From positions 9,906 to 73,905 of the IMG/VR virus record IMGVR_UViG_3300037634_005573: a DNA stretch of 64,000 bases. One strand, written 5' to 3'. Below, piece by piece: positions 57-63,817 of the stretch (the stretch's first letter is position 1; every line of letters begins with the position of its first letter). The notes under the pieces are model-generated. The model saw only the letters and a list, made by a program, of their open reading frames with translations. It made no database searches and was not told the DNA's origin. The position numbers were made by a program, and so were the translations under genes. Source of the stretch: a virus (lineage: Duplodnaviria; Caudoviricetes).

Positions 57-64
57 TAAATAGT
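57..64 (-). promoter_or_regulatory. Putative late-promoter octamer ACTATTTA
   Basis: Exact match to the octamer recurring upstream of virion genes. Confidence 0.45.
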
Positions 65-3000
65 TATTGATTAACGAAAGCGAACCCATCCTTCTTAGAA
101 ATATCGATAGTCATATCGGAAACATCCTTCAAGGAATCCAAGTGAGAGATAAGAAAAACCGTTCTGAACTTGGACTTGATGATCTCCAACATCTGCGTGA
201 ATGCTTGGAGATGCGTTTCGTCCAGCGCAGTTCCGGGCTCATCCAATATCATAATATCGCTTTTCGGCAAGTTGGAGACAGAAAGCAGGGCAAGGCGAAT
301 AGCCATCGCCGCCATCGTCTTCTCGGCACCGGAGGCCATAGAGAGAGGCCGAGGATCGTGCCTGGGATGCTTGATGAATATCTCCAACTTGTTGCCGACT
401 TCCTCAAAGAAGGCCTCAAAGTCGGTGAGGTTCGCAAGTATCTTTGCGATCTCCTCATTTACGACGGGCAACCGCTTTTTGATAATGTCGTAGGCAATAC
501 CGTTAGAATGCATACATCTCATAAACAAGTCATAAGCGGTATATTCTTGCCGTAGGTTGTTGGCGTCGGTGCGCTGTTCTTCAAGGTGGGCCACCTTTTG
601 TTCGTTGGAACCTACACTTCGGTGCAGGAGAGATATTTTCTCATTGCACTTTTCATATCTTTTGTTAGTCTTTATGGCCTGGGCTTCCATTTCCTTCTGG
701 GATGAAATAAGATTTTCTAGGTTTTCAATCGCTTCTTTGTTCTCTTCATAAACTCCCTTCTTGGATAAAAGTTGTTCTATCTCGATCTCGATCTTGGAAA
801 TAGACGCTTCGTTAGATTCAATTTGGAGTTCCAGTTCTCTTATTTTGGTCTCGGCCAAACGCTTCTTGAAAGAAATATCGTTGTATTGCTGGATCTGGGA
901 GGTTATTGCTTCCTCGTCCAGGGTTTCGTATATCTCTTCAAGATCGGTGAGATCTGTTTCCAGGGATGGTTTTGTTTTGGCGGCTGCGACAGCATCTTTG
1001 ATGAACTTACAACTAGGATAAGAATCCCCACAGGGGACTTCCGCAAGCAGTTCTTCGCGGCGATCAACATCTTCAAGTCTTGATTTGAGAATATCTATCT
1101 GTTTTACCAGTATTATAATCTGTTTCTCTTTCTTGGTTAGATTATCAATATCAAAGTTCTCCAAAAAGCCGGACATCTTATCCAGGGTTTCTTTTTTCTC
1201 TTCGATCTCGTTTCGCTGGTTGAATAGGGCTTCTTGGGTTTTGGACAGTATTTTCTGGCCCTTCTCCAAGAAGGCATTGACCCTGTGGATATAAATGGGC
1301 TCTGCCGGGACGGCTGCGATCTTATTGGCTATTTCAGCAATATCAAGCGATAAGGTGGTTGATTTCTCCAAGAGGCCGCGGCAGGCTGCCTGTTGTATAA
1401 TCAGGCTTTTCTCGGCTTGATAGAGTTCCTTCTTGGCCTCTTTGATTTCTTCGTCGAAGTTGCGCTCGCCAAGGCGGCGAAGGGCGCCTTTGATTTCGGC
1501 CGAGTCTTCTTTTGATAATCTGAACTTCTTCTCAAAAACCATCAAGTCCAAAAAGTTCGCCAGGATCTCTTTTCGTTTTGTGCTTCCTTCTCTGATAAAC
1601 GAGAGGCTATCAAGTTGGCTAGCCATACTGGTATTCAGGAAGTCGTCTATCGTGCCGAAAATACGGCGAATGTTTTTATCGGTTTCGTTCCTTGTTAGGC
1701 CATTCAGGCTTTCAAGTTCGCCGGTGTCTAAATCTACACTGTAAAAATCCAAATCTACTTTGGCTTCAAGGGTTTCTTCGCCTTTCAACTTCTTTGTATA
1801 TTTTTCAGATCTCCGATTGATAGTGTAGAGTTTGCTTCCAATAACTATTTCAGCGATGCCTTCGGCGTGATCTTTCTGCTGGTTTATTACATTCAGATTC
1901 TTGCGTTCGTTCTTTGAGGTTGTATTGAAGATCGTGTAGAGCAAACTATCAACAACGCTAGACTTACCCGAGAAGTTCTTTCCGAATATGCCGACAACTC
2001 CGTTTAGTTTCTCAAACCTAATCTTATTGGCCGGTCCATAGTTGAATAGGTTGTCCCAGGTGAGTGTCTTAACATGCCAGTTTACATTTCTTGATATTTC
2101 CTCACTTTCCTCAACGATGCTCGTATATTTGCGATTGAGGTCCAAGACGCGTTGGAGAAGGTCTTCGCTAATCTCGTAGTCTTTGAGATATTCTCGAATG
2201 AACTTCTCTAAAACCGCGGTGTCTCGCAGGTTCTCTTGTTCGATATTGCCGGCATATTTCTCGATGTTGCCGCGTTGGCCGGCAGAGCGGTTAAGAAAGG
2301 TTACGCTTTCAGGCTTGAATCGGTGCTTGGCGACTTCGACGGCGCGATGCATCTGCTGGACTGATAGGTTGTTTTCGCTGATTAGTCTTACGCGGGAACC
2401 TCGGGGGATGCGCTGGTTTCGGGGCATCCGGCCGGTGGGAGTGAGGCGAACCGTGACGAAGGGCTTGGGATTATCCAAGACAAAATGTTCGCAAGTAAAG
2501 GTCTCTTTATCTTGTATATCCCACAGTAAGTAGCCTTTGTCATTTGTCTCGCCAAAGTTCTGTTGAACGGTTGAGCCAGGATATCTGACCTTTCCGTCGC
2601 GGTCTAGGATCTGGTTTGTCTTGTGAATATCGCCCAGAAGAGCATAATCAAAATCCTCGAAGATGTTTATGCTGTGATCGCCCTCTTGCATCGTCCAGCC
2701 AATATCAGTTTTGACGCCGGCAATGGCACCGTGATAGAGAGCAATATTAATATTCTCTTCGCTCGTTGGCGTGATCCAGTTCTCTTCGTCGAAAACGGAC
2801 AAGACATTGAGCACAACGTTGTGGCCGACGGAGACTTCCTGTGCGTCTTTCAATAGATGCAGGTTGGGATGCCCCAGCGCATTTACTATCGGCGTGATCG
2901 CGTCTTGGCGATTAGAGTTTTTGAGGTTGCCGTCGTGGTTGCCGAGGACAATATAGGTTGGTGCGACGTCGGCAAGGCCGGACAAAAACTCTGTTGCTAG

Positions 3001-3174
3001 TTGGAAGTATTCCGGCGAGAGTTGCGTTTTTGTATGAGCGATGTCGCCACAATGAACAATACAATCAATTTCCTGTTCCTTAAGGTTTGTGAATAGTTGC
3101 TCAAATACAGAGCGGTATTCTTTATGATACCTGTAGTTTCTGATGTGTGTGTCAGCCAGATGGCAGATCCGCAT
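64..3174 (-). CDS. Fused SbcD-SbcC (Mre11-Rad50-like) nuclease-ATPase, 1036 aa
   Basis: N-terminal metallophosphoesterase motifs (DTH, CGD, GNHD, LGDIH), Walker A GKNFSGKSS, long coiled coil, signature-like ASGAE, Walker B/D-loop ILDEP, H-loop ISH; SD AGGAG. Confidence 0.92.
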   Translation of the reverse strand: MRICHLADTHIRNYRYHKEYRSVFEQLFTNLKEQEIDCIVHCGDIAHTKTQLSPEYFQLATEFLSGLADVAPTYIVLGNHDGNLKNSNRQDAITPIVNALGHPNLHLLKDAQEVSVGHNVVLNVLSVFDEENWITPTSEENINIALYHGAIAGVKTDIGWTMQEGDHSINIFEDFDYALLGDIHKTNQILDRDGKVRYPGSTVQQNFGETNDKGYLLWDIQDKETFTCEHFVLDNPKPFVTVRLTPTGRMPRNQRIPRGSRVRLISENNLSVQQMHRAVEVAKHRFKPESVTFLNRSAGQRGNIEKYAGNIEQENLRDTAVLEKFIREYLKDYEISEDLLQRVLDLNRKYTSIVEESEEISRNVNWHVKTLTWDNLFNYGPANKIRFEKLNGVVGIFGKNFSGKSSVVDSLLYTIFNTTSKNERKNLNVINQQKDHAEGIAEIVIGSKLYTINRRSEKYTKKLKGEETLEAKVDLDFYSVDLDTGELESLNGLTRNETDKNIRRIFGTIDDFLNTSMASQLDSLSFIREGSTKRKEILANFLDLMVFEKKFRLSKEDSAEIKGALRRLGERNFDEEIKEAKKELYQAEKSLIIQQAACRGLLEKSTTLSLDIAEIANKIAAVPAEPIYIHRVNAFLEKGQKILSKTQEALFNQRNEIEEKKETLDKMSGFLENFDIDNLTKKEKQIIILVKQIDILKSRLEDVDRREELLAEVPCGDSYPSCKFIKDAVAAAKTKPSLETDLTDLEEIYETLDEEAITSQIQQYNDISFKKRLAETKIRELELQIESNEASISKIEIEIEQLLSKKGVYEENKEAIENLENLISSQKEMEAQAIKTNKRYEKCNEKISLLHRSVGSNEQKVAHLEEQRTDANNLRQEYTAYDLFMRCMHSNGIAYDIIKKRLPVVNEEIAKILANLTDFEAFFEEVGNKLEIFIKHPRHDPRPLSMASGAEKTMAAMAIRLALLSVSNLPKSDIMILDEPGTALDETHLQAFTQMLEIIKSKFRTVFLISHLDSLKDVSDMTIDISKKDGFAFVNQ

Positions 3175-3273: not shown

Positions 3274-3516
3274 TTATTCGTCTTTTTCGGGAGCGGTGGG
3301 GTCTTTTTGCATTATCCGCTGGCCGGCAGCAACCATCAGAGCGCCGATTGCGACGGGCGAGAAGTTGTAGCCAACTTGCATTATAGCATCAACGATCACT
3401 TGAATCTTTTGGGGATCAGTCATTAGTTCGACCGGATCCTCGTTCAGTTGTGTGGTAGTTTGCTCTTTAAGCTCTTCTTTGATAAACTGTTTGAGTTGTT
3501 TCTTTGTTAGTTTCAT
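3274..3516 (-). CDS. Small acidic protein with MKLTKKQLKQFIKEEL leader (putative internal virion protein)
   Basis: ATG at 3516 forms an ATGA overlap with the upstream stop, preferred over 3537; amphipathic leader and a short hydrophobic segment. Confidence 0.7.
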   Translation of the reverse strand: MKLTKKQLKQFIKEELKEQTTTQLNEDPVELMTDPQKIQVIVDAIMQVGYNFSPVAIGALMVAAGQRIMQKDPTAPEKDE

Positions 3517-3782
3517 TGTGATGGTCCCCAAACCCATTCAGGTTCGCCTTCTTCGACGTTGCCGGGTTGAAAAATAAAATCACCGGGGAGGGGAGTTCCG
3601 TCAGGTCCGGTGGGCCACATCGGGTGAGTATTGTCTACGGGCTCGGGTGAAAGAGCAGCATACTCGTCCAGGGAGATGCCCGGTGTCGGTTGGGGCAATT
3701 CGTTGTTTTCTTCGGCAGGGGCGCCGGCAACCTCGATAATAAGGCGTTGGCCTGGATCGAGAGTGATGTGAATGTCTTCCAT
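3513..3782 (-). CDS. Hypothetical Pro/Glu-rich protein, 89 aa
   Basis: SD AAGGA, octamer upstream, coupled to the next gene. Confidence 0.7.
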   Translation of the reverse strand: MEDIHITLDPGQRLIIEVAGAPAEENNELPQPTPGISLDEYAALSPEPVDNTHPMWPTGPDGTPLPGDFIFQPGNVEEGEPEWVWGPSQ

Positions 3783-3811
3783 TGTTGTTTCCTTTTAAAA
3801 AGAAGTTATCT

Positions 3812-4738
3812 CTAAACAGTAAATAACTTTTGTAGTAAATAGTCATCCTGGGAAACAAAAGATGCTTCTTGCCTCCTTTTTTCGAATATGTCTTTCGTCA
3901 TTTCGCCGACATCTTCATAGCCATCAACATCGATCATATAAACTTCGACGTCATAAGACAAAAGCAGTTTCAGGATTTCAACCGTCTTTTTGGACGCGTC
4001 GGAATCCAGAGCGAGATACACCACAGCATTTCTTTTTACGATCTCTTGAAACAACTTCGAATTTTCGCGAATGGTCGAACCTAATAAAGGGATGGCATTT
4101 CCAGCTTTGATAGCGTCAAAAATGCCCTCAACAATAATAATAGGGTTATCCCAATCCACGTATAGTTCATTAAAGACGATATTCTTTGCTGCGGAGGGGT
4201 TCTTATAGCGTGGCCACGCATTTGTATAACTCCTGGCGATAAAATAGTTCACATTCCCATCGCCATTGAAAGAGGGAATGATGATCCGGCCGTGATATGG
4301 GCCGGCCTCACAAAATCCGATCTTCCACCGCAGGATGTCTTGGGGACCAAGACCGCGGTCATTTAAATAGTTTAAGGCCCTTCTCGCTCCCGTAGGAGGA
4401 TTTTTAGAGGAAAGAGGTATGAACTCCCCCGGAAGGTTTAAAAGGGTCTCAAGGTGGGGCTTTCGCTCCGCAAACAGATCCTCAAAAGCGCCGAGGTCGA
4501 CGACACCTGAGAGGTCGTTCCACTCTTGGCGTTCCTCAAAGGAGCCGAAGCGGCGAACAAGGCGGCCAAGGTTCTTGCCGCGGGCGTCACAGACCCAGCA
4601 TTTGTAATAGCCTTTTTCAACATTGACGGAAAACTTTCTCTTGTGGTGCTCGCAATACGGGCAATGAAACAAGTGTTCGTCGTTTGTTTTATATGAGTAT
4701 CCAAGAACATCTGTTAGGATTTGGAGTTTTGTTCGCAT
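3812..4738 (-). CDS. DNA primase (Zn-finger + Toprim)
   Basis: CPYC...CWVC zinc-binding domain, Toprim IVEGIFD and LDSD. Confidence 0.9.
   Translation of the reverse strand: MRTKLQILTDVLGYSYKTNDEHLFHCPYCEHHKRKFSVNVEKGYYKCWVCDARGKNLGRLVRRFGSFEERQEWNDLSGVVDLGAFEDLFAERKPHLETLLNLPGEFIPLSSKNPPTGARRALNYLNDRGLGPQDILRWKIGFCEAGPYHGRIIIPSFNGDGNVNYFIARSYTNAWPRYKNPSAAKNIVFNELYVDWDNPIIIVEGIFDAIKAGNAIPLLGSTIRENSKLFQEIVKRNAVVYLALDSDASKKTVEILKLLLSYDVEVYMIDVDGYEDVGEMTKDIFEKRRQEASFVSQDDYLLQKLFTV
3836..3843 (-). promoter_or_regulatory. Putative late-promoter octamer ACTATTTA
   Basis: Exact octamer ~54 nt upstream of ATG 3782. Confidence 0.45.
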
Positions 4739-5247
4739 ATGTATCCTGCTTTCGCGATGATAATGGAATCCGCCATATCATAACAATGTGGTTTTGGGTT
4801 TCCGTTTCTGGTGTATTCTATTTCAAAGGCCGGCTCGGTGGCGATCAGGTGCTGTATAACGACCTCTTTGGCCTTTTGCCCTTTGGGAATCTTCAAGCCG
4901 CATATGCGCCGAGCACTTGGGGCTGCGACATAGAGCGGTTCTGTTCCATATATATCATAACACAGCCAGGAGACAATGCCATTAAAAGATGACAATATTG
5001 ACAAAGTTTTTGCAGAAGAAAAACCAGAGCGAAATGACTGCAAAGATTTCTCTATATACACTTGTTCGATCTGGTATTCGGATTTTATAGTTAAAAGAGC
5101 ATCGCGCATTTTCTGCGCTTTGGTCATAAGGGTAGGAAAATAGCGCTTGTTACGAAAGTCCCAAGCGCCATTTGAAATAATGTTGTCGTTTTTGTCGATG
5201 ATTGCAAAACCAGTAATGCTGGTTGAGATGTCTAGGCCGAGAATCAT
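4714..5247 (-). CDS. RuvC-like Holliday junction resolvase
   Basis: ILGLDISTSITG start, internal IEK, C-terminal DMADS: RNase H-fold acidic residues. Confidence 0.8.
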   Translation of the reverse strand: MILGLDISTSITGFAIIDKNDNIISNGAWDFRNKRYFPTLMTKAQKMRDALLTIKSEYQIEQVYIEKSLQSFRSGFSSAKTLSILSSFNGIVSWLCYDIYGTEPLYVAAPSARRICGLKIPKGQKAKEVVIQHLIATEPAFEIEYTRNGNPKPHCYDMADSIIIAKAGYICEQNSKS

Positions 5248-5254
5248 TGATTAT

Positions 5255-6160
5255 TTATCGAGTAGCGATGTCTCGGGGTATTGCACTACCAAAATTTCGC
5301 ATTAAATCTTGGAAAACCCCTTCGCCACTCGCCATGAGTTTTTCGATCACACCCATGGTGGCTTCGGTGACGGCCGGATCGTCGCCTTGTACTAATTCCG
5401 TCGCCTGCTTCATGACTACCAAACCATCATTGATTGCTTGTTGTAGTTCCGGCTTTAGTGAAAGATAGTCAACATCCATTGGGCTGTGAACGTGTCTTGC
5501 AAGTTCTTGTGCCAAACCCGGGTGGCCGGACTCATTCGTAAAGCCGATAATAAGTTTGGTTGCTTCGAGATGTTCGCCAGTCACAGAAAGCTCCCCACCG
5601 GTGGATCCGGGCAAGCCAACAACCTTGGCCATGGCGACTCCTCCCCCAGACAATTGTTGTATTGCGTAAGTAACTGCTGTTATAACAGCAATTTGGACAG
5701 CAATCGTAGCTACAGCATAAACAGTTGGCTGACTTTCTTTAAATTTGAGCCTCGCCTTATTTATACGACTACCGACTTTGGCTATCTTTGCGAGCGCGGC
5801 AAAACTATAATTTTTCACCTTCAGCATGAAAGCCACAAGTTGAAGAGACATTTCCATGTAGGGATTTTTTAGAAAACGTATAGCCGCCTCTTTAGCTCGG
5901 GCTGGTAGGTCACCAACTTTATCTTTGAGTTGTCCAAAGAATTTCCCAACCATATTTTCTTGAAGAAGCTTATCTGTTTGCCGTAACCACTTTTCAAAAA
6001 TAACATTTAGCCTATCGTTATTTTGTCCTTCTTGTATCAAGCGAAATTCATGCGCTAAATCATATACAACCAGATCTTTACCTTCTAGAATAAAAACGAG
6101 GTCGTCAGGTTGATTACTATATCTCCGCCAGCCTTCCATTATCAGTTTCATGTTGTTCAT
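5255..6160 (-). CDS. Hypothetical protein with MKLIMEGWR leader and internal hydrophobic segment
   Basis: 301-aa ORF, SD GAGGAG, TM-like VYAVATIAVQIAVITAVTYAI. Confidence 0.75.
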   Translation of the reverse strand: MNNMKLIMEGWRRYSNQPDDLVFILEGKDLVVYDLAHEFRLIQEGQNNDRLNVIFEKWLRQTDKLLQENMVGKFFGQLKDKVGDLPARAKEAAIRFLKNPYMEMSLQLVAFMLKVKNYSFAALAKIAKVGSRINKARLKFKESQPTVYAVATIAVQIAVITAVTYAIQQLSGGGVAMAKVVGLPGSTGGELSVTGEHLEATKLIIGFTNESGHPGLAQELARHVHSPMDVDYLSLKPELQQAINDGLVVMKQATELVQGDDPAVTEATMGVIEKLMASGEGVFQDLMRNFGSAIPRDIATR

Positions 6161-6178
6161 TATTCAGTTCTCCTCTCA

Positions 6179-6186
6179 TAAGTAGT
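6179..6186 (-). promoter_or_regulatory. Putative late-promoter octamer ACTACTTA
   Basis: 19 nt upstream of ATG 6160. Confidence 0.5.
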
Positions 6187-6210
6187 TTTGACCTTCACAT
6201 AAGCCACAAC

Positions 6211-6378
6211 TTATTGATTATTAATATTGTATTCTATAATACTAAAAAGGAATTCTCGTTGTTCTGGGGTCAGAGGGTGATTGATTTCCGTGACCTGGAC
6301 CTCCGGCGAAAGAGTGGCGGGAAAGACGAGGTAGCCAAGAAGAACAAGGGCGACGATGTAAGTGCTATTTTTTATCAT
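6211..6378 (-). CDS. Small single-TM protein (MIKNSTYIVALVLLGYLVF...), probably leaderless
   Basis: N-terminal hydrophobic helix; ATG 6378 coincides with the predicted +1 of the adjacent promoter. Confidence 0.6.
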   Translation of the reverse strand: MIKNSTYIVALVLLGYLVFPATLSPEVQVTEINHPLTPEQREFLFSIIEYNINNQ

Positions 6379-6384
6379 AGTATA

Positions 6385-6413
6385 AGTATAGCCCATTACG
6401 AACCAAAAGTCAA
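6385..6413 (-). promoter_or_regulatory. Sigma70-type promoter TTGACT-17-TATACT
   Basis: -35 at 6413-6408, -10 at 6390-6385, 17-nt spacer. Confidence 0.7.
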
Positions 6414-6414
6414 G

Positions 6415-7164
6415 CTAAGTTTCCAATCTTTTTATTGTTTCTTTCTCTATCTCGTCGACGTGAGTCAAAATATCTTCGACGCCGACGCCGGTTGAGTCGG
6501 CAAGTCCTTGTAGTTCGGCTGGGCTTAGGGAGCGGACTTGTTTAATCTGATCTCCCACCTTTTCAGCATAAACCTCAAACGCCACAGACCAGGCGGGTGG
6601 AAGCATATCGGCGCCGATGTCGGGGTGTGAATCAAAGGCGCGGATTCCCTTTTGCTGGGTATATGCCCAGGTACCAGAGTTCCCGAAGAGCATCTTATCT
6701 AGGGATTCTATATCGTAAAAATCGTTGGTGGATCCACGAACCTTCCTAGATTCTAGGTTTTCTTTATAATCTTTCGCGGTGATTCCAAGAGAGGGCAGAA
6801 TATAGTCATCTGCTATTTGGCCCGGCGTGACCCAGATTAGGCCTCCACTTGTCGGGGCTTTGGACCAACTCATTTCTTCCACCGGCATTTCGGGGGCAAC
6901 GTGGGCGGCTATTGGCTCTTCCGTCTGCTCTATCCCCACATCGGGCATACTTGGGGTTTGAGAAGCCATCGTGCCGGCTGCGACGGCAGCGGCAAGGCCG
7001 GTGCCGGCAATTGCTGATTTCACGCCTTCTTCAAGATCTTCTTCTGGGGCGGGGAGGCCGAAGAGGATTTCCTTGGTTTGTGGGGACAAGAGGGAGCCGA
7101 TATTGCTCTGCTCCTCTTTCACGTAGTGGCGCCAGCCTTCCATTATCAGCTTCATGCCAGACAT
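6415..7164 (-). CDS. Hypothetical acidic protein with MKLIMEGWR leader and Ala/Gly-rich hydrophobic segment
   Basis: 249-aa ORF, SD AGGAG, DLEE followed by GVKSAIAGTGLAAAVAAG. Confidence 0.75.
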   Translation of the reverse strand: MSGMKLIMEGWRHYVKEEQSNIGSLLSPQTKEILFGLPAPEEDLEEGVKSAIAGTGLAAAVAAGTMASQTPSMPDVGIEQTEEPIAAHVAPEMPVEEMSWSKAPTSGGLIWVTPGQIADDYILPSLGITAKDYKENLESRKVRGSTNDFYDIESLDKMLFGNSGTWAYTQQKGIRAFDSHPDIGADMLPPAWSVAFEVYAEKVGDQIKQVRSLSPAELQGLADSTGVGVEDILTHVDEIEKETIKRLET

Positions 7165-7182: not shown

Positions 7183-7190
7183 TAAATAGC
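7183..7190 (-). promoter_or_regulatory. Putative late-promoter octamer variant GCTATTTA
   Basis: 19 nt upstream of ATG 7164; one mismatch. Confidence 0.4.
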
Positions 7191-7193
7191 CAC

Positions 7194-8357
7194 TTACATA
7201 TCCAACTTTATCTTGAATGTGAAATCCCTGTTCAAAGTTTTTCGAATTGGTTTAGACAAAGTAGCAATGCCTATCAGGTTGTTGTCGTCATCATACACGC
7301 CTATCTTGCTAATAAATGTTTGCTTCTCGAAGCTAGCAGTAGGAGTTAAATAAGAGGCAGAAATAGCATTTTTGATCTTTAACTGTGGCTCGATATATTG
7401 ATAAGTTCCGGAGTTTGCCACTTTTGATACAGACTGGCTATATTGAATATATGTAGGGTTTGTTGAGAAGTCTAGCTCGCCTTTTGGAGCATGACAAAAC
7501 ATCGTTATGTTTGGGACAAGATTGGTTGCCTCAAAGGCCATATTGTAACTAGATGAGGTCTCAGAGCCGCCGGCGTTTCCATCATTCATTCCTGTTGCAA
7601 AATAGACCCACTTGGCTTGATCCGGATTATTATCCGGATAGGTATAGGTCGTTATTGTCAAATCCCAAGAGCCGGTTATCAAAACTATGCCTTCATCATA
7701 AAGAATGACGCCGGCGACGGATCCGGAGCCAGTAGAGCCTTCCGGGCCTATCTGAATTAACTCCCCATTAGAATTGGAATCTTTTAGCTCACCGACAAGG
7801 GTGCCGGTTATATAATATTTTAGATTAACAGTGCCCTTGCGAAGGCGGCCCCCATAAAAGATGTTAGGAACAGAAATCAAATTAATCTGTTGTGTGGCCT
7901 TGTTGCCTAAACTGGAATCATATGCATAGTGGGCAGATTTTGGAGAATAATAGTTAAGTGTGTTTTTGAGTGCGGTGATTCTATTTCTGCTTGAATTTGT
8001 TGCGAAAAACTCCCTAGTTACAGAGGAAGTAACGGGGTACGCCCCGGTGATTTGTTGCGAAGGGCCATATTGTGTGTGATAGTCCGCATCAGTAATATCC
8101 CGGAAAGCCAACAGATCGTCCGTTTTATAGACAAAGGGATAAACAAGCCCGGTAGTGGCTGTATTTCTATCAACATTCAACTCGAACAAAGAAAGATTAC
8201 CGATGGCAGACACCACGCTAGCGTCAAAGGCGCCGGATTGCAAACTCTTCTTGTTGTAATAGACCGAAGAATCAAAAACAAAGAATTCTTGCTTTGGGGT
8301 AGCTTCAATCTGATTGTAGAATATGTCTAATTCTTTGAATTTGTATAAGCTAGACAC
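7194..8357 (-). CDS. Putative virion structural (baseplate/tail) protein
   Basis: GTG start with GGAGG; C-terminal ISKIGVYDDDNNLIGIATLSKPIRK motif shared with 8372..9481. Confidence 0.6.
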   Translation of the reverse strand: MSSLYKFKELDIFYNQIEATPKQEFFVFDSSVYYNKKSLQSGAFDASVVSAIGNLSLFELNVDRNTATTGLVYPFVYKTDDLLAFRDITDADYHTQYGPSQQITGAYPVTSSVTREFFATNSSRNRITALKNTLNYYSPKSAHYAYDSSLGNKATQQINLISVPNIFYGGRLRKGTVNLKYYITGTLVGELKDSNSNGELIQIGPEGSTGSGSVAGVILYDEGIVLITGSWDLTITTYTYPDNNPDQAKWVYFATGMNDGNAGGSETSSSYNMAFEATNLVPNITMFCHAPKGELDFSTNPTYIQYSQSVSKVANSGTYQYIEPQLKIKNAISASYLTPTASFEKQTFISKIGVYDDDNNLIGIATLSKPIRKTLNRDFTFKIKLDM

Positions 8358-8371
8358 AGCTTACCTCCACA

Positions 8372-9481
8372 TTAGTAGTCGAGGCGCACACGAAGAGTAA
8401 ATTCTCCTGCGGGATCTTTTCTTTGTGGAGCCGAAAGTTTGCCAACTGCTAAAAGCTCGCGGTCTGGAGAATATAGCCCGACCGCGGTTGGATAAGCAAC
8501 TGGCGGGTCGCTTCTTCTTTGCTTGACGCGGATCTTACTATTCGCCAAATATGTCGGATTCGAGCTATAATTGAACTCGTTGTGATTAACGCGACAAAAA
8601 TAAACAGTCGAGTTTATCTCGGTGGTGTTATTGAAAGAAACATTATAGAGTCTGTTTCTTAGGGCGTCAGCCGTAGCCTGGATGGTCGAGCCAGTAATCA
8701 TGGCCGGTATAAGATCTCCGCCAACATTCATCGTCAGGCTGGAGCTTAGAATTCCTTGATTTCCATTGATGTTTTGCGTGCTGTCGCACATTATTATGAC
8801 CGGGTTGATCACAGCAATGCCGGCTTGATAATATATCAGGCCCACCGCCGCGGCGGAAGCGCCACCAGCTTGGATAGTAGTGCCACTCACTGGAGAGCCT
8901 GCCGAGTTCGTAATATACAGAATACCGTATTCCCCGGCCGGTGAGTTCGTTTTATATACATCTGCGGCGCCGGAGTCATAAACCTTGATTCGGAGCGCTG
9001 ATGACGCCGGGACTGCATACCCACTTGATGCCATAAACTCTAGTGCAAAAGTTCCTTTCTTGATTTCGTCTTTGGAGAGAAGCCGAGAAAAATTGAAATA
9101 CACCAAATCAGTATGAGTGCTTCCAGTGGCTAATTGCCCATCCCTATCAAAGTTTCGGACAGAGCCGGTTTCATCAAAGCCAACCAACACTTGAGCTAAT
9201 TCGTTGTAAATATTAACCTTCTTTGTAGCTTGCGACGTGATGGTGACAGCACCGGAATAGCCCGTCGAAACTCCCAAAGTCAAATCAAAGATATGGTTTG
9301 CCGAAGAAGACAAGTATGGGTAATCATAAACCGACTGGAACATTCCATGACTATAATTTTTGATGTTATTATCGGAGTAAGTTCCCGAGATGATGGTTCC
9401 TGTAATAGGCACCGACTCATGCAGGAGAGTCCTTGTGCTTGTTACATCATTGGAGGTAAATTGTTTATAAACTCTAGCCAT
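8372..9481 (-). CDS. Putative virion structural protein, paralogous C-terminus to 7194..8357
   Basis: YFCRVNHNEFNYSSNPTY...AVGLYSPDRELLAVGKLSAPQRK; Ser/Thr/Gly-rich. Confidence 0.6.
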   Translation of the reverse strand: MARVYKQFTSNDVTSTRTLLHESVPITGTIISGTYSDNNIKNYSHGMFQSVYDYPYLSSSANHIFDLTLGVSTGYSGAVTITSQATKKVNIYNELAQVLVGFDETGSVRNFDRDGQLATGSTHTDLVYFNFSRLLSKDEIKKGTFALEFMASSGYAVPASSALRIKVYDSGAADVYKTNSPAGEYGILYITNSAGSPVSGTTIQAGGASAAAVGLIYYQAGIAVINPVIIMCDSTQNINGNQGILSSSLTMNVGGDLIPAMITGSTIQATADALRNRLYNVSFNNTTEINSTVYFCRVNHNEFNYSSNPTYLANSKIRVKQRRSDPPVAYPTAVGLYSPDRELLAVGKLSAPQRKDPAGEFTLRVRLDY

Positions 9482-9507: not shown

Positions 9508-10410
9508 TTAGGGTAATTTGATAAATCTTACCGGAATATCAACTCGATAGCCGGTCGTTAGGCCCTCAATACTAATAAAAGTATCGATGTAGTTAACTGT
9601 TTCGCCTTCTACAGTGGTGGTTCCGCCCAACTCTGTAAACAACGAATCTGAATCACGGAGGTTTAAGCTGGTCGAGATTTTAAGACTCAATATTGTCCCA
9701 CGAGAACCGGCGATAGTTTGAGTGCTCGTTCCGGAAGAGGTGATAGTATTCCTGGTGACCACCTTGCTCGCGCCTGCCGTCAAGGAGAAATAGTAGGAAG
9801 CAATGCCATCATCATCGATGAAGCTTGTGCTAGCCAGGGCGCCGTAGGAGTCGGCCAAATTTCCCAAGTCATTATTGATCTTAACAATATATTGACTTTC
9901 CACTAACGCAGGGGGAAGTTGTGTGCTGGGAGGGACCGCCGAGTTATCGATGCCTTGGTCAAGGCGAATAAACTTTGCATCATCAGTAGGATCATAACCG
10001 TTGAGTATTCCCTGCACGTTTTGTAGCGCGGTGGTCTCTGCTGTGGTCTGGTCGGCAGTAATAATAAAAAGATTACTTGCAGCATGTCTTTTATTGCTGT
10101 TGGCCAACTCGTTCAACTTGATAACCGGAAGATAAAGCAAATCGTTTCGTGAAAGCGACATAAGCTTTGACTTCATAAAGGAAGCGTTATTTGTAAAGGC
10201 CTCCAATATTGGAGTAAGTTTGATATTTTGATCATAGTAAGCCGAGCCACTAGCATTGGTTGAATCGTATAAAGAGTAGTCTATTTCGTCGTCTGCCAAT
10301 GCAAAAGCAGTAATTTGAAAGCTACCATCGGCCTTGGCCAATCTCATCCGACCGGTGTCGGTTAAAACGGCGTCCAAGATAATGTCGCCGGAATTGTCTA
10401 AAAATCCCAT
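9508..10410 (-). CDS. Putative virion structural protein
   Basis: N-terminal DAVLTDTGRMRLAKADGSFQITAFALADDEIDY, similar to the N-terminus of 16461..17519. Confidence 0.6.
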   Translation of the reverse strand: MGFLDNSGDIILDAVLTDTGRMRLAKADGSFQITAFALADDEIDYSLYDSTNASGSAYYDQNIKLTPILEAFTNNASFMKSKLMSLSRNDLLYLPVIKLNELANSNKRHAASNLFIITADQTTAETTALQNVQGILNGYDPTDDAKFIRLDQGIDNSAVPPSTQLPPALVESQYIVKINNDLGNLADSYGALASTSFIDDDGIASYYFSLTAGASKVVTRNTITSSGTSTQTIAGSRGTILSLKISTSLNLRDSDSLFTELGGTTTVEGETVNYIDTFISIEGLTTGYRVDIPVRFIKLP

Positions 10411-10443: not shown

Positions 10444-10469
10444 TAATTAGTTCTATCATTATAAATAGT
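10444..10469 (-). promoter_or_regulatory. Tandem putative late-promoter octamers ACTATTTA (10462-10469) and ACTAATTA (10444-10451)
   Basis: In the 157-nt intergenic gap ahead of the 10410-7194 gene run. Confidence 0.55.
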
Positions 10470-29516: not shown

Positions 29517-29524
29517 TAATTAGT
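29517..29524 (-). promoter_or_regulatory. Putative late-promoter octamer ACTAATTA
   Basis: 16 nt upstream of the gp6-like start. Confidence 0.5.
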
Positions 29525-29927: not shown

Positions 29928-29935
29928 TAAATAGT
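29928..29935 (-). promoter_or_regulatory. Putative late-promoter octamer ACTATTTA
   Basis: 18 nt upstream of the gp25-like ATG. Confidence 0.55.
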
Positions 29936-39617: not shown

Positions 39618-39919
39618 CAGTTGTTGGTGCCTTCGTTGTTGCTTTGCTGTAAGAGATCGAAGATTTCTGTCTTGTCGTGCTCGCTCAAATCTACGCTGGT
39701 GTTGCTTTGTTTCTGGATAAGGGCCGCAATCTTCACAAGTTGTTCATTTGAGCGTTGTAGAGTTTCGACATATTTGGCCGCGACAGAACCAGCATATTTA
39801 TGATTCTCTTCGTTCTTGGCCAAAAGGCGCATAACATCATCAAGAAGTTCTCTTGTGACTTCTCGATCATCTTCTATATTCTGGATTGCCTCATCGATGC
39901 GTTTTTGTAAGTCACTCAC
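39617..39919 (-). CDS. Hypothetical coiled-coil protein, 100 aa
   Basis: GTG start overlapping the sigma stop; TGATG coupling downstream. Confidence 0.7.
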   Translation of the reverse strand: MSDLQKRIDEAIQNIEDDREVTRELLDDVMRLLAKNEENHKYAGSVAAKYVETLQRSNEQLVKIAALIQKQSNTSVDLSEHDKTEIFDLLQQSNNEGTNN

Positions 39920-40629
39920 ATTTCGTCCTCATTCCAATCTATTTTAAAGTCAGCATATAATGATCTTACTCTTTTCAAACTAGCAACAACTTGTTTAGTG
40001 TTGAGGCCGGTTAGTTCCCTCAAGTATAAGTAAATAGCTTTCTTATTAAAAATTTCGATGTCATCAACAGATTCAAATAGCACTTGAATTGCTTTCAACA
40101 CTTTTTCATCATTTGGTTTTTTCGAATCTTCCAACCAATCAACCATATTGGCTTTAAGGTTGAGTAGAAACTCCTCTTCTTCGCGCTCTTTTAAGTATGT
40201 TATTCTGGTCGAGAGAAAATTTAGTTCTAGCTCCTTGGGCATTTCATATATGTCCAGTTCGGTTCTATTTCTCTTGCTTTTCTTTTTGACCTGGGCGATG
40301 AACCAATTCTTTGTGACCACCGTGAAGTAGGAGAAAGCCTTGGCCTTCTCTGGATTGAACTTATCTAGGATCGTTACGAGCCAGATCTTACATTCGGCTC
40401 GAAGTGAGTCGATGTTGGGCAAAGTTGTGAAACGATAAGTGTATACGATCTTATCCACCATCTCGCTAAAAACGGGGCCAATAAAATCTCTATATAGTTC
40501 GGTTCTCTTGCGGATATCGTCTGTAGCTACATACTCAAGAATTGCCGCGTCGTGAACCGCCGTAAAATAGTTCCGGCTGGTGCGGGAGCGCTTGCGCCTG
40601 GTCTTTTTCTTCATTGTCATTTGTATCAT
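39916..40629 (-). CDS. Phage sigma factor (T4 gp55-like late sigma)
   Basis: LDKFNPEKAKAFSYFTVVTKNWF resembles gp55/sigma region 2; exact start uncertain (40629/40620/40614). Confidence 0.75.
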   Translation of the reverse strand: MIQMTMKKKTRRKRSRTSRNYFTAVHDAAILEYVATDDIRKRTELYRDFIGPVFSEMVDKIVYTYRFTTLPNIDSLRAECKIWLVTILDKFNPEKAKAFSYFTVVTKNWFIAQVKKKSKRNRTELDIYEMPKELELNFLSTRITYLKEREEEEFLLNLKANMVDWLEDSKKPNDEKVLKAIQVLFESVDDIEIFNKKAIYLYLRELTGLNTKQVVASLKRVRSLYADFKIDWNEDEM

Positions 40630-63809: not shown

Positions 63810-63817
63810 TATATAGT
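63810..63817 (-). promoter_or_regulatory. Putative late-promoter octamer ACTATATA
   Basis: 25 nt upstream of ATG 63785. Confidence 0.45.

Follow-up and report, generated by a model that had tools for sequence, protein, structure and literature searches.

Short N-terminal leaders on unrelated proteins of an uncultured marine T4-type phage: candidate capsid-targeting propeptides

Three leader-bearing genes at the locus

We analyzed a 64,000-nucleotide (nt) stretch of DNA, hereafter the window (IMG/VR virus record IMGVR_UViG_3300037634_005573, positions 9,906 to 73,905), which derives from an uncultured marine T4-type phage and whose genes all lie on the minus strand. Inside positions 3274-7164 it harbors three genes, P7, P5 and P1, whose products begin with one of two short peptide leaders. 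The first leader, L1, has the form (M-x-x-)MKLIME-x-WR-x-[FY]-[LIV]-x-E and is found on P5 and P7, and the second, L2, has the form MK[IL]TK-x-QL[KR]-x-[IF]IKE-E and is found on P1. An initial annotation, made from the letters of the DNA, had proposed that such leaders load diverse proteins into the phage head. The features of the locus, assigned from the sequence and for the leader of P5 also from an alignment, are listed below (aa, amino acids; ORF, open reading frame; a slash marks a predicted cut).

6415-7164, minus strand: P7, a 249-aa orphan protein with an L1-type leader
7114-7164, minus strand: L1 leader of P7, 17 codons, with a predicted protease site after Glu17 (Y-V-K-E/E)
5255-6160, minus strand: P5, a 301-aa orphan protein with the L1-type leader MNN-MKLIMEGWRRY
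6119-6160, minus strand: L1 leader of P5, 14 codons, with Gln instead of Glu at the consensus cleavage position
3274-3516, minus strand: P1, an 80-aa acidic protein with an L2-type leader
3513-3782, minus strand: 89-aa ORF without a leader, translationally coupled to P1
6211-6396, minus strand: 61-aa ORF between P7 and P5, with a hydrophobic N-terminal segment and without a leader
6126-6152, no strand assigned: leader-coding DNA repeat, copy 1, 26/27 identical to copy 2
7130-7156, no strand assigned: leader-coding DNA repeat, copy 2, 26/27 identical to copy 1
6179-6186, minus strand: promoter-like octamer ACTACTTA, ending 19 nt before the ATG of P5, with AGGAG 9 nt before the ATG
7183-7190, minus strand: promoter-like octamer GCTATTTA, one mismatch, ending 19 nt before the ATG of P7, with AGGAGA 6 nt before the ATG
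3836-3843, minus strand: octamer ACTATTTA, 54 nt upstream of the 89-aa ORF

P5 starts with MNNMKLIMEGWRRY and P7 with MSGMKLIMEGWRHY (longer readings of the two N termini are MNNMKLIMEGWRRYSNQ and MSGMKLIMEGWRHYVKE), and the N terminus common to both is M-x-x-MKLIMEGWR-x-Y. The initial annotation had noticed that MKLIMEGWR opens two proteins with dissimilar bodies, and this was borne out. BLASTP similarity between P5 and P7 was confined to residues 1-14 (11/14 identical, E 2e-5), and in a profile-profile comparison of the two families columns 1-15 alone aligned. The 26/27-identical DNA repeat that encodes this shared start was recovered as described; its degenerate pattern matched no more than these two sites in the window, compared to 0 expected after shuffling, and a six-frame scan of the window gave no further copy of the L1 leader. 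We also found the later L-x-E sites, namely QLNE, LLQE and DLEE.

Behind MSG-MKLIMEGWRHYVKE, P7 has a linker, a segment rich in Gly and Ala, a second, acidic linker and, at its C terminus, a conserved domain of ~150 aa. Its homologues (P0005-P0007) all retain the leader, with [LV]-K-E at leader positions 12-14. The two known homologues of P5 (P0002 and P0003; 57-60% identity) both begin with MKDMKLIMETWRKY, and in P5 and these homologues the cleavage position reads Y-S-[NS]-Q, without a Glu (Y-S-N-Q in P5). The next sites of the form φ-x-E (φ, hydrophobic) in P5 are ILE26, in a predicted beta-strand, and LLQE68, at a helix end in the AlphaFold2 (AF2) model.

The third protein, P1, had been listed from an ATG at 3537. 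A second ATG, at 3516, which overlaps the stop of the upstream 89-aa ORF as ATGA, is almost certainly the true start. Read from there, P1 has 80 aa and begins with MKLTKKQLKQFIKEEL, so that the claim of a third protein with a leader of its own also stood; the leader with its predicted cut is MKLTKKQLKQFIKE/ELKE. The P1 gene is also present in a 99%-identical strain (L137).

A hydrophobic segment had been ascribed to each of the three proteins. Taking the usual Kyte-Doolittle mean of 1.6 as the threshold for a transmembrane-grade segment, this applied to P5 (best 19-residue mean 2.04), in which residues 146-170 form a single very hydrophobic helix, and not to P1 (1.36) or P7 (1.29). The net charges are -21 for P7, -2 for P5 and -6 for P1. 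Pfam and PHROGs gave no match for any of the three. The AF2 model of P5 is an all-alpha bundle (predicted local distance difference test [pLDDT] 72; predicted template modeling score 0.77), for which Foldseek against PDB and BFVD returned only generic helical bundles (E 0.05 or worse) and VIA-align a best Z of 8.2, within the noise for helical proteins. The AF2 model of P7 was unusable (pLDDT 46), and the ESM Atlas gave no lead for the bodies of P5 and P7. We also observed that residues 51-68 of P5 (window 5957-6010) contain a stretch, NVIFEKWLRQTDKLLQE, with a weak and non-significant resemblance (BLASTP E 0.57) to an L1 leader and an L-x-E behind it; this stretch may be a copy of the leader that has decayed inside the protein.

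Distribution of the leaders and their register

We then determined how widely the two leaders occur, using M-K-L-I-M-E-x-W-R as the search pattern for L1 and the strict pattern MKITKxQL[KR]xIIKEE for L2. All IMG/VR figures for L1 and L2 rest on the matches listed by degenerate DNA pattern scans, and the counts of stretches are lower bounds. The L1 pattern was found in at least 120 stretches, giving 110 non-redundant proteins with unrelated bodies; in their alignment (A1) the mean column identity was 7%, and invariant columns were limited to the leader. The L2 pattern was found in at least 119 stretches, giving 159 non-redundant proteins, again with unrelated bodies and with a median length of ~100 aa, whose consensus among the matches listed is MKITKxQL[KR]xIIKEE[LI]. 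Among the same matches, L2 genes often stand in tandem, in arrays of up to five per locus, and both leader types occur together at two loci.

Outside the residues fixed by the search, L1 carries F/Y at position 11 in 84/110 proteins, L/V/I/M at position 12 in 73/110 and E at position 14 in 67/110. A φ-x-E site is thus placed at positions 12-14 in 54% of the 110 proteins, compared to 0-12% per position elsewhere, and beyond position 15 the information content is at background level. In L2, I12-K13-E14 is fixed by construction, being part of the search pattern; a second φ-x-E is found at positions 19-22 in 62%, and conservation collapses thereafter. The 127 L1 matches listed contain 97 distinct 27-nt leader DNAs, using all six Leu codons and both Arg codon families. 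Because of this, selection on L1 operates at the level of the peptide, with the DNA free to vary at synonymous sites.

In 596 Gb of prokaryote genomes, the L1 pattern gave only 5 matches, of which two look genuine, with ~3 expected by chance, and the leaders are thus virus-specific. One genuine-looking L1 protein (L290, NHHP01000006.1) lies in the metagenome-assembled genome (MAG) 'Ca. Pelagibacter sp. TMED166'. This MAG also holds a T4 Gp23 capsid gene, on contig C6, the link between leader and Gp23 being at the level of the MAG. L290 is probably a phage contig within a Pelagibacter bin, and the hint to a host is weak at best. At another locus (L251:3627-3875), two L2 leaders stand in frame within one ORF of 83 aa, MKITKSQLKNIIKEE first and MKITKAQLKQIIKEE 47 residues on; this is either a fusion of two array units or a case in which the second Met is a separate start.

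These leaders closely recall the capsid-targeting sequence (CTS) of the T4 internal proteins, MKTYQEFIAE, which is removed after packaging (PMC8442874). In mutants of this sequence, residues 4 and 7 were found to serve mainly targeting and residues 8 and 10 processing, and with Asp in position 10 the protein was still loaded but no longer cleaved (PMC9026906). Both L1 and L2 have the register hydrophobic-x-x-hydrophobic-hydrophobic-x-Glu, the same as that of the T4 residues Y4, F7, I8 and E10. The correspondence is one to one: T4 targeting residues 4 and 7 match W8 and F/Y11 in L1 and L8 and I11 in L2, and processing residues 8 and 10 match L12 and E14 in L1 and I12 and E14 in L2. The start of T4 Alt, MELITELFDE (T4 record), shares this register. 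In the window, P7 (YVKE) and P1 (FIKE) fit it fully, and P5 fits its targeting half only.

Taken together, these data suggest that L1 and L2 are probably T4-type capsid-targeting propeptides, carried by a large and swappable set of head cargo proteins. This is the best explanation that we can offer, and it rests wholly on comparison. The earlier proposal of a T4-like targeting leader that is removed by the prohead protease is in this respect well supported, except that P5 has no Glu to be cleaved at. We envisage that the leader would fold into a short amphipathic helix, whose hydrophobic stripe would dock the protein on the scaffolding core during prohead assembly. A gp21-family serine protease (Peptidase S77) would cut after the Glu of the terminal hydrophobic-x-Glu, that is, after ...YVKE in P7 and after ...FIKE in P1, and the cargo thus freed inside the head would leave with the DNA at infection. 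P5 would probably be loaded too, either unclipped at its Gln position, by analogy with the T4 E10D mutants, or clipped further in.

Among cultured phages, Flavobacterium phage immuto has the closest TerL (45% identity). It has annotated gp20, gp21 and gp23 homologues and harbors a related MKKSQL..II.E leader on at least four unrelated proteins, among them KNV73_gp095, gp094, gp080 and gp072. In the same phage (L136, NC_055915.1 99035-140489), four unrelated proteins share the N terminus M-E-N-(N/T)-F-D-L-K-K-F-L-V-E-N-K-L, one of them encoded directly after the prohead protease; this motif is possibly a third tag class, in a cultured phage. Among cultured phages, blastn of the region and tblastn with two common L1 cargo families gave no match, and tblastn with the leader consensus of 20-23 aa, a method too insensitive for such queries, had no useful outcome. 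A full-text search of the literature for the leader strings retrieved nothing relevant.

Head genes, upstream DNA and cargo

To place the leader genes in a genomic context, we relied on relatives found via the SbcCD gene (52-57% identity). Besides the leader-bearing genes, the following genes were recognized in this part of the window.

64-3174, minus strand: fused SbcD/SbcC nuclease
3812-4738, minus strand: DnaG-type primase
4714-5247, minus strand: RuvC-like resolvase

Downstream of SbcCD, the relatives encode TerL, the portal, two conserved small proteins, a Peptidase S77 protease, a scaffold-like protein and the capsid gene. The S77 protease, the gp21-family prohead protease, was identified in one relative (L002) with an E value of 2.5e-30. 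According to CheckV completeness, the leader-bearing contigs are fragments of genomes of ~185-190 kb. S77 was detected in 11/28 leader-bearing records, where ~12.7 would be expected from completeness if every genome had one. It was present in 3/4 records estimated to be at least 90% complete, the leader match of the fourth being a 14-aa chance ORF, and in 3/3 complete genomes whose leaders are genuine, and no relative with coverage of the region lacks it. T4 Gp23 capsid protein was found in 5/5 records tested. In an alignment, the Gp23 homologues of the lineage have LL[RK]E/[AS] where T4 gp23 has its maturation site, FLTE65/A, and from this conserved site the specificity of the lineage protease is predicted to be hydrophobic-x-Glu. 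The proteases of the lineage themselves begin with MSK-LLRE, in which LLRE is conserved.

The leader genes cluster beside the head module. In a complete genome of 190.5 kb (G003), an island of about nine L2 and six L1-type genes, ~15 leader genes in all and including the variant MKKLLTEWRKFLKE among the L1-type ones, borders SbcCD on its upstream side, with TerL ~10 kb and the protease ~15 kb away and the portal in the same module. In strain L137 (6.5 kb, 99% identical, found by the metagenome scan and ending at the TerL start), a 237-aa L2 gene directly follows SbcCD, and in L138 (77% identity) four tandem L2 genes do so. P5 and P7 are missing from the gap between the 387-aa gene and RuvC in the relatives, and by this comparison they are variable insertions. 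Two further observations concern the same region. The two ends of G003 (L126:1-1800 and L135:7800-10528) have the same flanking genes (an MVKQQIEERC protein and the SbcCD start) and different sets of L2-tagged genes between them. It looks as if the assembler had joined two strain alleles of one hypervariable cargo locus, or as if the ends formed a terminal repeat that is imperfect. In L002 (10039-10737), an AAA_33/polynucleotide-kinase-like P-loop protein is encoded between the portal and the prohead protease; it begins with MSYKLIVERWNRFVNE, an L1-like leader ending in V-N-E.

We next considered the DNA upstream of the leaders, for which the initial annotation had proposed a portable cassette of promoter, Shine-Dalgarno sequence and leader. 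P5 and P7 are both preceded by AGGAG and by an ACTA(C/T)TTA-like octamer that ends 19 nt before the ATG, as had been noted, the copy of P7 having one mismatch. The same octamer precedes the gp25-like and gp6-like baseplate genes that the window encodes along with a gp55-like late sigma factor. In IMG/VR, the octamer family was found within 80 nt upstream of 36% of 115 L1 genes, compared to 2.9% of background windows (~12-fold). In the window, 18/19 matches of ACTAHWTA are on the coding strand, and eight lie at most 60 nt upstream of an ORF start, baseplate genes included (positions of note are 57-64, 3836-3843, 6179-6186, 10444-10469, 29517-29524, 29928-29935 and 63810-63817). Over the whole window the octamer was not enriched (19 matches, 15 expected); its case is thus made by its position before genes and by the enrichment in IMG/VR, and not by the window-wide count. 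The octamer is a candidate promoter for the gp55-like sigma factor (39916-40629), and its pattern fits, without proving it, a co-regulation of the leader genes with virion genes.

The rest of the upstream DNA is poorly conserved. Over the 49 nt upstream of P5 and P7, the ungapped identity was 0.43. Within contigs compared to between contigs, upstream identity was 0.41 versus 0.32 for L1 and 0.31 versus 0.31 for L2, and identity of the leader DNA was 0.92 versus 0.81 for L1 and 0.88 versus 0.80 for L2. Of the proposed cassette, the octamer and the AGGAG thus recur on both genes, whereas the upstream DNA as a whole does not, and the leader is kept as a peptide. The homogenization of leader DNA within genomes leaves room for recombination at the leader as a route to cargo swapping. 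Upstream of many L2 genes (IMG/VR loci L161-L277), we observed the 7-mers GAATGGA, ATGGATT and GGATTAG (in 20-24/162) rather than ACTATTTA, and these may belong to another kind of element, regulatory or at a junction, that one sub-lineage has. Mobile regulatory cassettes of T4-type phages, reportedly described by Arbiol et al. in 2010, are said to consist of a promoter plus a stem-loop. We rejected such a cassette as a candidate: the non-coding DNA is not conserved (0.43 upstream of P5 and P7), and conservation is found at the level of the peptide.

The cargo was diverse. A Pfam search of 97 L1 proteins identified three GNAT acetyltransferases, an M23 peptidase, a Zeta-toxin/AAA_33 kinase, a C5 DNA methylase and a 2',3'-cyclic phosphodiesterase-like domain, most bodies being orphans. 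The initial annotation had regarded leaders on metabolic enzymes as speaking against head loading. Taken literally, such enzymes are present (the kinase, the acetyltransferases, the methylase and the M23 peptidase), but we do not count them as a refutation, because enzymes of this kind are known as head cargo elsewhere, for example T4 Alt and P1 DarB (PMC5512222). Transmembrane-grade segments were found in 23% of the L1 cargo, compared to 17% of control ORFs, and in none of the L2 cargo. With one of the three window proteins carrying such a segment, an L1 share near that of the controls and an acidic cargo, the idea that the cargo proteins are membrane-acting effectors was not upheld.

Weighing of the explanations

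Several observations weigh against a role of L1 and L2 as capsid-targeting propeptides. P5 has no Glu at the consensus cleavage position. In 53/118 L1 genes, the actual start lies three codons upstream, mostly giving M-S-E or M-S-D (compare MNN and MSG in the window), and such extra residues (MS[DE]) before the leader are unlike the T4 CTS. The cargo is acidic, with a median net charge per 100 aa of -3.2 for L1 and -5.2 for L2, while T4 internal proteins are highly basic (PMC8442874); small basic cargo, which is typical though not strictly defining for those proteins, was thus not what we found. In the cargo bodies, φ-x-E was slightly less frequent than in control ORFs (ratios of observed to expected of 0.96 and 1.04 versus 1.19), a depletion that is small, confounded by composition and weak evidence as a support. 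The evidence for the S77 protease comes from the genomes of relatives and not from the first 9.9 kb of this contig. To our knowledge, S77 is universal in T4-type phages, and because of this its co-occurrence with the leaders is not specific evidence. Finally, pattern scans did not find the exact L1 or L2 in Flavobacterium phage immuto, Microcystis phage Mel-JY01, P-RSM4 or S-TIM4.

A comparison with T4 brings out both sides. As with the T4 CTS and internal proteins, an N-terminal tag with an MK start and the same register is carried by unrelated, fast-evolving proteins; an S77 protease of the gp21 family, a gp20 portal and a gp23 whose maturation site is at the same position are all found in the lineage; and the genes occupy variable loci in the neighborhood of head genes. 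The leaders exceed the T4 CTS in length (14 residues, 17 with MS[DE], and effectively ~22 with the second site in L2), a single genome can have at least two leader classes, and ~15 genes per genome are tagged compared to a handful in T4. The cargo, in contrast to the basic internal proteins of T4, is acidic and includes enzymes.

The acidic character of the cargo invites a different comparison. The leader proteins, especially small acidic L2 proteins such as P1, could be parts of the prohead scaffolding core, like T4 gp67 and gp68, that are degraded and expelled at maturation. T4 gp67, a core protein of 80 aa that is very acidic, has the stretch ...DLIKEE... (T4 record), which resembles the IIKEE core of L2. 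Like gp67, gp68 and gp22, which are small, acidic, encoded in or beside the head module and processed at φ-x-Glu, the L2 proteins are short, acidic, numerous and arrayed by the head module, and many L2 leaders have two φ-x-E sites. However, T4 core proteins are conserved single-copy genes, while the L2 bodies are arrayed and hypervariable to the point of being non-homologous between close strains (the two end arrays of G003; L138 and the window), which would be unexpected for a structural core. Furthermore, φ-x-E is not enriched in the bodies, and a kinase, acetyltransferases, a methylase and a peptidase on L1 do not suggest core parts. We consider this explanation unlikely. We give somewhat less credit to the view that the shared 5' ends are a cassette at the level of DNA or RNA (promoter, ribosome-binding site and first codons), spread by recombination for expression or shuffling, with a functionless peptide. 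This would account for the 26/27 identity in this genome, for the octamer at an equal spacing of 19 nt with AGGAG before both genes, for the enrichment of the octamer upstream of L1 genes and for leader DNA that is closer within contigs than between them. Yet the peptide is kept across genomes while its synonymous sites vary (97 DNAs for 127 matches listed), conservation reaches the unconstrained F/Y11, L12 and E14 and then stops, and the upstream DNA is barely closer within than between genomes.

The leader might also address proteins to a place other than the prohead, such as a membrane site, a phage-built compartment, a chaperone or a degradation system. An amphipathic helix is a common docking element, about a quarter of the L1 cargo, P5 included, has a transmembrane-grade segment, and the link between tag and head is drawn by comparison. 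On the other hand, the leaders are predicted to be charged amphipathic helices without an h-region, and features of Sec, Tat or lipoprotein signals were not found in them; the share of transmembrane-grade segments is near that of the controls in L1 cargo and nil in L2 cargo; and the leader genes cluster with head genes. Since such an address would in addition leave the terminal φ-x-E and the residue-wise match to the T4 CTS unexplained, we hold it to be improbable. Recognition of the leader by a modifying enzyme such as a radical-SAM/SPASM maturase would follow the known logic of ribosomally synthesized and post-translationally modified peptides, in which one enzyme serves many leader-bearing substrates. 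The distribution of PF04055 largely refutes this candidate: the family was found in just 4/28 leader-bearing records, and neither the complete genome G024 nor three that are 77-91% complete (G012, G019 and G020) have it. Where it is present, it lies tens of kb from the leader genes (~50 kb from the leader island in G003) and never adjoins them. We consider it very improbable.

Capsid targeting also has parallels outside T4. In the giant phages phiKZ, 201phi2-1 and SPN3US, a gp21-like protease cleaves many proteins of the head interior behind a Glu, and the host receives a large cargo of ejected proteins (PMC5694885, PMC7411985, PMC10052503). These phages use long propeptides with no shared short tag and a motif S/A/G-x-E, whereas here a near-identical short tag is reused. 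In the Dar system of phage P1 (DarA, Hdf, DarB, Ulx, DdrA/B) and in packaged polyvalent proteins, the head takes up enzymes, a DNA methylase among them, and their injection counters host defence (PMC5512222, PMC12810830), which parallels the methylase, kinase, GNAT and M23 cargo on L1. Loading of the Dar proteins differs in that it follows an ordered hierarchy of protein-protein interactions, with no common N-terminal tag removed by an S77 protease.

A broader interpretation, which we put forward tentatively and hold with less than even confidence, is that a globally abundant, uncultured marine T4-type lineage with genomes of ~185 kb has a very large modular head-cargo system, with hundreds of unrelated proteins loaded and injected, and with L1 and L2 perhaps differing in fate or copy number. 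In such a system, L1 may serve larger single proteins and enzymes and L2 arrays of small acidic proteins, and the latter could be DNA mimics or anti-defence factors. If true, this would be an effector arsenal far beyond the few internal proteins of T4, and the tagged proteins would be the first to meet host defences. If the tags act as in T4, they would provide a simple sequence rule for the capsid contents injected by a major group of ocean phages, and they could serve as loading signals in engineering. The tagged set, being large, fast-evolving and mostly orphan, is a place to seek new anti-defence and host-takeover proteins. The advance lies in the scale, in new tag classes and in a new lineage; since it has already been proposed that the CTS allows T4-like phages to load varied proteins (PMC9026906), the principle itself is known.

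One last observation concerns the neighbors of P7. The 387-aa and 369-aa proteins that adjoin it (window 7194-9481) are paralogous over their last ~115 residues (BLASTP E 1e-10), had no match in Pfam, PHROG or PDB, and both end with F-T-[FL]-[KR]-[IV]-[KR]-L-D. They are kept in all relatives and are preceded by the octamer, at 10444 and 10462, and they are probably virion proteins.

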